Origin: Candidatus Thorarchaeota archaeon
GTDB taxonomy: Archaea; Asgardarchaeota; Thorarchaeia; Thorarchaeales; Thorarchaeaceae
Reading direction: 5' to 3'
NCBI GenBank assembly: GCA_019057475.1
Contig: DXJO01000041.1
Coordinates: forward strand, 64,001-128,000
DNA: 64,000 bases
Part shown: positions 1,074 through 23,617 of the stretch, in pieces
How positions within the stretch are numbered: the stretch's first letter is position 1
How the letters are laid out: each line of letters starts with the position of its first letter
Notes under the pieces: generated by a model
What the model was told of the DNA's origin: nothing
Seen by the model: the letters and a program-made list of their open reading frames with translations, nothing else
Databases searched by the model: none
Translations under genes and position numbers: made by a program

Positions 1074-1181
1074 GGGCCGGTAGTTCAGCCTGGACGCGAC
1101 TTCACTCGCGAAGCCGCGGGGACCTAGAATGCCTCCTTGGCATGGAGGAGGTCGTGAGTTCAAATCTCACCCGGTCCACCA
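1074..1181 (+). tRNA. tRNA-Ala(GGC) with ~30-nt D-loop intron (~1095-1124)
   Basis: Acceptor GGGCCGG/CCGGTCC with G3:U70; anticodon arm CCTCC-TTGGCAT-GGAGG; T arm GTGAG-TTCAAAT-CTCAC; encoded CCA; extra hairpin cgcg..cttc/gaag..cgcg in the D loop. Confidence 0.93.
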
Positions 1182-13230: not shown

Positions 13231-13236
13231 TCATTG

Positions 13237-13284
13237 TCCTTGGCATGGAAGAGGTCCCGAGTTCGAATCTCGCTCGGTCCACCA
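13237..13284 (+). repeat. tRNA-Ala 3'-half copy 1 (att-like)
   Basis: TCCTTGGCATGGAAGAGGTCCCGAGTTCGAATCTCGCTCGGTCCACCA; 42/48 identical to 1134-1181. Confidence 0.92.
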
Positions 13285-21186: not shown

Positions 21187-21293
21187 GCCGCGGTAGATCA
21201 GCCAGGGAGATCGCACGGCTGAAGACCGTGTTGTCGCCGGTTCAAATCTAGTTGTGATTACCACAACTGGTGAATGTCCGGCCCGCGGCACCA
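21187..21293 (+). tRNA. tRNA-Phe(GAA) with ~30-nt T-loop intron (~21248-21277)
   Basis: GCCGCGG/CCGCGGC acceptor; CACGG-CTGAAGA-CCGTG; T stem GCCGG/CCGGC interrupted by hairpin CTAGTTGTG/CACAACTGG; CCA. Confidence 0.93.
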
Positions 21294-22304: not shown

Positions 22305-22447
22305 TTGTAGATAGCCCCACTTGACCACTGACCTATATTTCAATAACAGGTTCTTTTCAGTGATTGAAATGACCTACTTCAGAATCATATCAAGTTCCTG
22401 GCATTGGTGTGAGTCCGAGTAAGGTTTCTTGTTTTAGTACTAGTTGA

Positions 22448-22521
22448 GGGCCAGTGGTCTAGCGTATGACATCTCTCTGATATAGAGAAGATCGAAGGTT
22501 TCAGTCCTTCCTGGCCGACCA
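22448..22521 (+). tRNA. Atypical tRNA, anticodon GAT (Ile) on a Val-like body; possibly a pseudo-tRNA
   Basis: Cloverleaf with TCTCT-CTGATAT-AGAGA, GAAGG/CCTTC T stem and ACCA, but G1:G72 mismatch and T loop TTTCAGT. Confidence 0.7.
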
Positions 22522-22523
22522 AT

Positions 22524-22602
22524 GGGATGTTGGTCTAGCTCGGTGAATGACATTGCTCTTATATGGCGAAGATTGGCGGTTCGATTCCGCCACATCCCAC
22601 CA
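22524..22602 (+). tRNA. Atypical tRNA, anticodon TAT (Ile UAU) on a Val-like body
   Basis: GGGATGT/ACATCCC acceptor; TTGCT-CTTATAT-GGCGA; GGCGG-TTCGATT-CCGCC; ACCA. Confidence 0.8.
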
Positions 22603-22605
22603 TTT

Positions 22606-22902
22606 CTACTTCTGTCGGGTTCTCTTTGTGACTGTGATTTTGAGAACGACACCGGATGAAGTCGGATTCGGACAGCGAACAAACTCAGTTGTCACTCCGT
22701 CCTTGTTGATTATTTTCTCGTAAGGAGTTCCTTTGTATGACCAGCCAAGTCGTCCATCATGCTGCAGCACTCGAATCATGTGACTTGCACTATCAATCAG
22801 CCAGTTGCACATCTTACCGGTACCAAAGGGATACTTGAATTTCTAACCTACCTTATGTTTTCGACAACCACTCTCGAATATCTCTAGTTCAATGTTTCTC
22901 AT
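22606..22902 (-). pseudogene. TIGR04076-like small Cys protein with in-frame TAG at 22843-22845
   Basis: MRNIELEIFESGCRKHKVG*KFKYP...MCNWL...VRCPNP read in a single frame. Confidence 0.65.
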
Positions 22903-22994: not shown

Positions 22995-23617
22995 TCACTT
23001 CTTAGGGGGTTTCAACATGTCCCAGTGTGGGATGTCAGCAGTTGGAACATAGCCCTTGGCTAGAACTTCAAACCCGTAATGTTCGTAAATTGACACATTA
23101 GACTCACATTGTGCCTTAAGATAACAGGGCAATTCCAGCCTGTCAAGTCGTTCAAGCATTGGACGGATGAGTTTGCTTGAATAACCCTGACCTTGTAGCT
23201 CAGGATTAACAGCAACTGGACCAAGATGCATGTAGGGAGTAACCGCGTACTTCGCTCTTCGTTGATTTGTGAATTGATCCATTTTCATCATCCGATTGAC
23301 TGGATTTCTGCCCATCGCCCTAAGAAGCCCAAACCACCTGCTCGAAGATGTTTCCAGAGAGTACTATCTACTGTGTTCGAGTGTTGCCATATTGCCACTC
23401 CCTCTAATCTTGATGAGGTGGCATATACCTCTCCGTATTGGAGAGGCTGTTTCAACCTGAACTTGAAGAAGACTGGCAATAGCTTCTTTCTCTCCTCTTT
23501 ATTGGGAAAGAAGTGAACACATAGAGGATCATCCCAAAATGCGCGTGTCAACAAATCTACAGCCAGCCCGATATCGGACTTGGAGAGCTCAATCAATCCA
23601 TCAAGAGCAGAAGCCAT
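22995..23617 (-). pseudogene. GNAT acetyltransferase split by a frameshift near 23300-23320
   Basis: N-half (RAFWDDP...EGVAIW) and C-half (LGPVAVNPELQGQG...NVSIYEHYGF) lie in different frames. Confidence 0.75.

Follow-up and report, generated by a model that had tools for sequence, protein, structure and literature searches.

The closest described systems are the leader-peptide attenuators of bacterial amino-acid and synthetase operons, such as trpL, ilvL and the pheST leader. Like them, the tRNA cassette described here, which lies in the window (the whole 64,000-nt stretch of Thorarchaeota DNA that was analysed), has a short open reading frame (ORF) with tandem codons for the same amino acid, a hairpin that overlaps it, a U tract, and a position upstream of the genes that would be controlled. 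Unlike them, it is archaeal, its candidate targets are tRNA genes, and the exact codons are fixed rather than just the amino acid. In addition, trp-type attenuators have a separate antiterminator helix; we found none in the cassette, which we therefore do not class with them, and in which a ribosome would have to block the hairpin directly.

The cassette also resembles the leaderless poly-Cys sensor ORFs of mycobacteria (10.1101/834739), a precedent for a sensor at the transcript start where a stalled ribosome blocks an inhibitory duplex. The mycobacterial duplex hides the ribosome-binding site of a protein gene (10.1101/834739), whereas nothing downstream of the cassette's leader is translated, so control would have to act on termination or processing.

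An AUA-reading anticodon with U34 is common to the cassette and to Mycoplasma mobile, a nanoarchaeon and a korarchaeon (PMC3575796, PMC3895270). The tRNA-Ile(UAU) of those organisms is Ile-derived, whereas the cassette is kept beside TiaS and tRNA-Ile2(CAU) and combines a Val-like body, U38, a GAU twin and a sensor ORF. As in tRNA-ProX of Streptomyces and Kitasatospora (PMC10404621), the body of one isotype carries the anticodon of another, and the genes are accessory and patchily distributed. However, tRNA-ProX stands alongside a dedicated ProRS isoform and has been shown to mistranslate (PMC10404621), whereas the cassette is without a dedicated synthetase and its tRNAs are only candidates for mistranslation. 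Spare tRNAs with altered anticodon loops (U38 for A38) are also the subject of a hypothesis paper on nuclease-resistant phage tRNAs (PMC10264068); the cassette differs in being chromosomal and archaeal, and we identified no Ile-specific nuclease. Within the literature covered, which excludes most subscription papers, we found no ribosome-sensing attenuator in archaea, none that controls tRNA genes, and no mention of these tRNAs.

Two tRNA genes with Ile anticodons

The cassette comprises the following features, all on the forward strand of the window.

22321-22339 (+): promoter, with a TTGACC motif and a TATA box (CTATATT here, TTATAT in most copies), in invariant or near-invariant alignment columns
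22362-22368 (+): putative transcription start at an invariant GA, with a 7-nt untranslated leader that lacks a Shine-Dalgarno motif
22369-22422 (+): leader ORF, M-T-x-x-x-I-I..., 10 codons in most copies and 17 here
22384-22389 (+): sensor codons ATC ATA (Ile-Ile), codons 6-7 of the leader ORF
22370-22425 (+): long imperfect hairpin with the leader ORF as its 5' arm; inner helix 22385-22393 with 22404-22412
22423-22435 (+): U-rich tract that follows the hairpin at once, a candidate site of premature termination
22448-22521 (+): tRNA 1, Ile(GAT), called by ARAGORN and by Rfam RF00005 (51.7 bits)
22524-22602 (+): tRNA 2, Ile(TAT), called by ARAGORN and by Rfam RF00005 (57.4 bits)
22603-22613 (+): pyrimidine-rich trailer resembling those of the genome's other tRNA genes, probable operon end

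A preliminary description of this DNA had noted two CCA-ending cloverleafs in tandem, 2 nt apart, and both are called as genes by ARAGORN and Rfam RF00005. The anticodon loops CTGATAT and CTTATAT, the GTCT/TGAC D stem and U38 that it read in the two tRNAs are all present. At gathering thresholds, Rfam matches in the window are to RF00005 only, with no T-box or other leader model among them.

The G1:G72 pair and the odd T loop reported for tRNA 1 were also found. G1:G72 is private to this genome, and the other intact copies have G:U (n=10) or A:U (n=4) at 1:72. In every copy, the D loop of tRNA 1 is short and lacks G18-G19, its T loop has C57 and free positions 55-56, and the elbow contacts of this tRNA are predicted to be lost on both sides. 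Nevertheless, its GAU anticodon, stems and CCA end are fixed in the 15 intact copies, in which 297/300 stem pairs are kept; tRNA 1 has decayed in two clades. tRNA 2 has a normal elbow, a Val-like D stem with G6:C67, an Ile-like U31:G39 pair, and U38. It keeps 377/380 stem pairs, and its anticodon loop is unchanged in 19/19 copies. The pair is real, and its two anticodons would jointly cover all three Ile codons.

Val-like bodies and the loss of the t6A motif

The preliminary description had regarded the bodies as Val-like and called for a comparison of Val and Ile isotype scores. We built family profiles from 19 Ile(GAU) and 20 Val genes and scored both tRNAs as log-odds with the anticodon masked. 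Both fall on the Val side, at -25 to -43 bits, where leave-one-out scoring gives +14 to +72 for Ile genes and -34 to -89 for Val genes. C12:G23, which had been taken as a Val mark, is present, but it is not diagnostic alone, as 2/19 of the family's Ile(GAU) genes share it. The pair that does separate the isotypes among family genes is U11:A24 (20/20 Val, 0/19 Ile).

The cassette tRNAs share U11:A24, the C12:G23 D stem, A73 and G45 with Val bodies. The house Ile(GAU) tRNA of Thorarchaeaceae has C11:G24, C6:G67 and A38 in 19/19 genes, where the cassette tRNAs instead have U11:A24 and U38; A35, U36, A73 and U31 of the house tRNA are present in both. Position 38 fits neither isotype, being A in all 19 house Ile genes, C or G in Val, and U in the cassette. 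The Val signal comes mainly from the D arm, and U31 is Ile-like. The nearest single genes are almost tied (49 versus 48 and 47 versus 49 identical of 65 positions). Anticodon remolding from Val, as had been proposed, is supported by the masked body scores and is the likeliest origin of these bodies, though not a proven one. In one genus, two house Ile(GAU) genes (L054, L055) carry C12:G23 and nearly match the cassette tRNAs in their anticodon stems, from which it appears that Ile/Val body exchange may have happened in more than one event.

C36 is a main determinant for ValRS, and A35, U36 and A73 suit IleRS (PMC9976931). C36 is absent from the cassette tRNAs, with U36 in all intact copies. Editing at position 36, another suggestion of the preliminary description, finds no support: U36 is fixed, and the Ile codons of the leader match it. 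Synthesis of t6A strictly requires a 36-UAA-38 motif (PMC13276492, PMC8565320). Position 38 is U in 15/15 intact copies of tRNA 1 and in 19/19 copies of tRNA 2, so the motif is missing and the cassette tRNAs have no t6A site.

A leader ORF with fixed Ile codons

The preliminary description did not include the unit of promoter, leader ORF, hairpin and U tract, which best accounts for the tRNA pair. No TATA box sits at the -33 position seen for the other tRNAs of this genome, as had been pointed out. Further upstream, at 22333-22339 and 115 nt from tRNA 1, there is a conserved one. The alignment reaches about 130 nt upstream of tRNA 1, and in 19/19 loci it places the TATA box 35-37 nt ahead of a conserved start codon. 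An invariant GA, the putative transcription start, lies 28-30 nt past the TATA start in all 19, and the start codon follows 7 nt further on. There is no Shine-Dalgarno motif before the leader ORF; the long ORFs of the genome are mostly led by one, without a clear leaderless peak.

The leader is conserved as a reading frame. It begins with ATG in 17 loci and GTG in two, and it contains no indel and no stop before codon 8 in any of the 19, with indels on both flanks. A stop stands at codon 11 in 16/19 (TAG 13, TAA 3); the rest end at codon 12 or 18, one also at 8. In this genome the codon-11 stop, at 22399-22401, has become TGG, and the frame runs on to the in-frame TAA at 22420-22422. The stop is otherwise kept in place through TAG/TAA exchange, even though its T-A falls in an unpaired loop. 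Avoidance of stops at codons 2-5 alone is not significant.

Codon 6 is ATC in 19/19 loci and codon 7 is ATA in 15/19; these are the codons that GAT and TAT, the downstream anticodons, would read, and they come in that order. In the genome at large, the ATC-ATA pair has a frequency of 0.45 per 1000 codon pairs. Across the 15 intact copies the sensor codons show 0 changes, whereas their five pairing partners show 8 (1.6 per site; Poisson P about 3e-4, a rough value). The A of ATC is unpaired yet invariant, and the C of ATC is kept in four copies in which its partner G is deleted. On these three observations, pairing alone does not account for the conservation of the sensor codons. In the four copies (two clades) that lack the GAU anticodon of tRNA 1, ATA is lost (ATG 3, CCT 1), and ATC and tRNA(UAU) are kept. 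This is the reverse of what one-to-one matching would give, and general relaxation is the simplest reading.

The hairpin cells are paired in 83% of cases, versus 26-43% when the pairing is slid, and the predicted fold has a mean z of -1.65, negative in 18/19 copies. The leader gave no consensus fold in RNAalifold, and covariation in it was not above that of shuffles; the pair count was reached in 1/500 shuffles, and in 23/500 with a shorter outer helix. A bacterial promoter/terminator scan did not call the hairpin and gave no useful information. With a ribosome footprint masked at codon 6 or codon 7, the mean computed fold changes from -16.1 kcal/mol (free) to -4.7 or -3.8 kcal/mol, and the masked folds are weak and differ among copies, with no conserved antiterminator helix. 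The U tract has 7-10 U in 14 nt in 18/19 copies.

A covariance model of the leader matches 12/87 Thorarchaeia genomes, always ahead of this tRNA pair. We found no convincing second Ile-Ile leader or TTGACC-TATA regulon in this genome. Pairing between the leader and the anticodon loop of tRNA 1 was considered and rejected, as it is lost in copies with A at that leader position.

House tRNAs, synthetases and isoleucine supply

The genome (3.34 Mb, 96% complete) has a normal house set: Ile(GAU), three CAU tRNAs including one of Ile2 type, Val(GAC), Val(CAC) and Val(TAC). In genome G000, the intact tRNA-Val(TAC) gene is closely preceded by a truncated duplicate (C54:73212-73271), which has a TATA box of its own. 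The tiaS gene, detected via PF08489, is an uninterrupted 445-aa frame here and is found in 10/11 carriers, and Ile2(CAU) was read in G000, G364, G383 and G389. With house Ile(GAU), Ile2(CAU) and tiaS all present, the cassette tRNAs are extras. The checks for tiaS and tRNA-Ile(CAU) proposed in the preliminary description thereby exclude the possibility that these are the ordinary Ile tRNAs of the lineage. Replacement of TiaS by the cassette's UAU tRNA was likewise rejected, tiaS and Ile2(CAU) being retained.

Kae1 is also present, as are one IleRS with intact editing motifs and one ValRS; none of the neighbours of the cassette is a synthetase. A bacterial-type SpeA-like protein at L115:673-2520 (-) in this genome is a likely source of agmatine for agmatidine. 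We found no pyruvoyl Arg decarboxylase of either type, and the enzyme is missing from Thorarchaeaceae (0/86). Agmatine auxotrophy as the main trigger was rejected on the basis of this SpeA-like protein, which is full length, with an E value of 1.6e-100 that falls just under the cut-off. ilvD is absent from all carriers and from 80/86 family genomes, and we found no true KARI; the carriers are Val auxotrophs too. With ilvD absent, a shortage of Ile could not be answered by synthesis, and more Ile-charged tRNA would be no help.

Distribution, selection and loss

A search pattern built from the shared D arm, loop and T arm matched 11/400 Asgard genomes, all in one family, compared to a total of one match for the reversed control pattern, so the tRNA pair is not a product of chance. 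A loose pattern for any UAU tRNA in the same 400 genomes was swamped by chance matches and is uninformative, so that UAU tRNAs with introns or other bodies may also occur there. Metagenomes added eight more distinct copies, giving 19 distinct loci, and the carriers are Thorarchaeota, including SMTZ1-45. The three non-archaeal matches to the pattern are not tRNAs. Relics occur in two further genomes, one whose leader is broken and whose anticodon is TTT, and the other without promoter, leader and tRNA 1; the relics in G384 and G392 are visibly decayed.

Parsimony on the cassette tree, using the 15 copies with intact tRNA 1, gives 0.27 changes per site for tRNA 2, 0.51 for tRNA 1, 0.85 for the U tract and 1.05 for the promoter, compared to 5.05 for the promoter spacer, 3.45 for the trailer and 3.2 for leader codons 3-5. 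tRNA 2 therefore changes about 19 times more slowly than the spacer. The preliminary description had proposed conservation in relatives as a check, and the substitution pattern across the 19 Thorarchaeota loci indicates that the cassette is under purifying selection.

In the main carrier genus the cassette adjoins tRNA-Phe, upstream of an FTR1 iron permease gene, and its place beside tRNA-Phe is the same in three genera. Among 23 FTR1 loci, the cassette is present in nine, a relic in one and absent from 12, and one locus is cut short. On the FTR1 tree the carriers are dispersed, a pattern that suggests repeated loss, and on this distribution the cassette is an accessory element that is often deleted. 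By eye, a remnant resembling the 3' end of tRNA 2 can be made out upstream of FTR1 in G368 (L172), and one resembling the cassette promoter in G377 (L165), in both of which the cassette is deleted. A palindrome, TTAACNATNGTTAA, stands before the FTR1/EfeU iron permease gene and is conserved across the family (L158-L187), a candidate DtxR/IdeR-type operator; in one genus the tRNA cassette is divergent from it.

The genome of the window belongs to another genus, and its copy nests, with weak support, among those of the main carrier genus. It also shares transglutaminase and GNAT neighbours with two copies (78-79% and 66-68% identity). Together, the nesting and the shared neighbours make lateral transfer between genera into this genome likely. 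The cassette stretch has 41% GC, versus 45-46%. The copy may be in early decay, as its codon-11 stop and its 1:72 pair are mutated and two neighbours are broken. Of these neighbours, a TIGR04076-like gene at 22606-22900 (-) is interrupted by an in-frame TAG (22843-22845) where relatives, in which the gene is intact, have a sense codon, and a GNAT gene at 22995-23617 (-) is frameshifted here and intact in relatives.

Two other tRNA genes of the window contain introns. tRNA-Phe(GAA), at 21187-21293 (+), has a T-loop intron, and ARAGORN wrongly puts its 3' end at 21263; in relatives the gene occurs with or without the insertion (77 versus 109 nt). An att site at tRNA-Phe was rejected, as the apparent duplication is this intron. 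In tRNA-Ala(GGC), at 1074-1181 (+), the intron lies in the D loop, and the 3' half of the gene recurs at about 13235-13284 (+). The 12-kb stretch between the gene and this repeat (44% GC) encodes a TraG-like P-loop ATPase, an LRR protein and an AAA-TPR protein, and is probably an island integrated at tRNA-Ala; Pfam recognises no integrase in it.

Discussion

Taken together, our alignments show a promoter, a 10-codon ORF with AUC-AUA, a hairpin, a U tract, tRNA(GAU) and tRNA(UAU) that are conserved as a unit at the level of sequence. We propose that this unit is a ribosome-sensing attenuator that switches on stand-by readers of Ile codons when these codons are decoded slowly, a reading to which we assign a probability of roughly 0.6. 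The spare tRNAs would then probably be made only when ribosomes stall on Ile codons.

In this model, a near-leaderless transcript would be translated from the leader start codon. If the Ile codons are read normally, the ribosome would complete the ten codons and depart, the hairpin would close, and the transcript would end at the U tract, either intrinsically or through aCPSF1/FttA, both of which are routes of archaeal termination (PMC8116511, PMC11616081). If AUC or AUA is read slowly, the stalled ribosome would cover the 5' arm, the hairpin could not form, and polymerase would read through. Both tRNAs would then be excised and would ease the stall, a negative feedback. IleRS would be expected to charge both tRNAs via A35, U36 and A73, and the Val-derived bodies and U38 would free them of any need for t6A or agmatidine and set them apart from the house Ile tRNAs. 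On archaeal ribosomes an Ile tRNA with U34 binds AUG as well, and it slows growth (PMC3895270); gating of tRNA(UAU) makes sense in this light. Counting against the attenuator model, U34 tRNAs are poor substrates of haloarchaeal IleRS, the leader lacks a Shine-Dalgarno motif, an antiterminator helix and significant covariation, and the copies without GAU have lost ATA rather than ATC. The model is also limited by the role that it gives to the hairpin. Archaeal termination is not known to need hairpins in general, so the direction of control follows from feedback logic only.

The attenuator reading has two branches, between which we see about even odds. In one, house Ile tRNAs would be cleaved or under-modified and the spares would deliver Ile as a backup. 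In the other, Val would be let through when Ile is scarce. This second branch, a programmed Ile-to-Val substitution in which Ile starvation is sensed by the leader and answered by Val-bodied tRNAs that decode Ile codons as Val, is possible, though well short of probable when taken as a claim of its own. Val could be attached by IleRS without proofreading, or by ValRS, which mischarges tRNA-Ile (PMC9976931) but would here have to act without C36. The idea makes sense of the missing ilvD and KARI, as extra Ile-charged tRNA would be useless to such carriers, and it accounts for the existence of such a cassette for Ile alone. I>V substitution is known to support growth of human cells deprived of Ile (PMC11724295), although the carriers are auxotrophic for Val as well. 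IleRS editing uses D-loop positions 16, 20 and 21, apart from the charging determinants (PMC11295145), and tRNA 1 has lost its elbow and both tRNAs have Val D arms. However, that D-loop effect is known for the E. coli enzyme and is debated (PMC11295145), the single IleRS has an intact editing site, no dedicated synthetase stands beside the cassette, and the UAU tRNA could also place Val at AUG. The corresponding description of the locus as an inducible mistranslation operon, in which two remolded Val tRNAs escape IleRS proofreading and bring Val to all Ile codons, is equally tentative.

A different explanation, which we consider unlikely, dispenses with translational control. The leader would be a DNA operator (the inverted repeat ATGA...TCAT) or a processing hairpin, its ORF would be incidental, and the tRNAs would be constitutive or controlled by a protein, with tRNA(UAU) a redundant AUA reader. 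Bacteria with both tilS and tRNA-Ile(UAU) are known (PMC3575796), and an inverted repeat of 4 bp, immediately after the start site, is made up of the most conserved leader bases. The half-sites, however, have a spacing of 16 bp, or one and a half turns of the helix, and the left half is altered in three copies (GTGC twice, ATGG once) that still keep a start codon. A processing hairpin would overlap the sensor codons and could account for part of their conservation, but neither a stop held at a fixed position through TAG/TAA exchange nor the 5' bias in conservation of the paired bases would be expected on this explanation.

We give still less weight to a translated leader with the opposite sign, in which stalling turns the tRNAs off, or to a tRNA 1 that is a non-decoding decoy or processing aid and leaves translation to tRNA 2. 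Uncoupling in archaea is thought to expose RNA to aCPSF1/FttA (PMC8116511, PMC11616081), as reverse control would need, but switching off Ile readers during Ile stalls would create positive feedback. The decoy role fits the absent elbow contacts and the two clades in which tRNA 1 has decayed and tRNA 2 is intact; it sits poorly with a GAU anticodon, stems and CCA end fixed in 15 copies. Finally, a neutral relic or the mobile-element decoy of the preliminary description is very improbable and, as a relic, already largely refuted by purifying selection: the patchy presence, low GC, probable single move between genera and broken neighbours would suit it, but tRNA 2 evolves about 19 times more slowly than the spacer, true relics (G384, G392) decay visibly, the place beside tRNA-Phe is shared by three genera, no neighbour resembles an integrase, and the cassette has no viral or phage matches (six pattern matches are not tRNAs).

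Coupling of stalling to termination has so far been hypothesised in archaea (PMC11616081, PMC8116511), and the attenuator model could be tested directly, as the 280-nt unit can be transferred whole to a genetically tractable archaeon. The cassette also offers natural tRNAs with Val bodies and Ile anticodons, with which the separation of IleRS charging determinants from those for editing could be tested, and an example from nature of an archaeal UAU tRNA that coexists with TiaS. If it is a mistranslation operon, it would be at once a leader-peptide attenuator in an archaeon, a case of tRNA genes controlled by attenuation, and a starvation-gated form of recoding that has no synthetase dedicated to it. 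If the Val branch is true, the genetic code of these Thorarchaeota, which are relatives of eukaryotes, would change in a programmed way gated by starvation.
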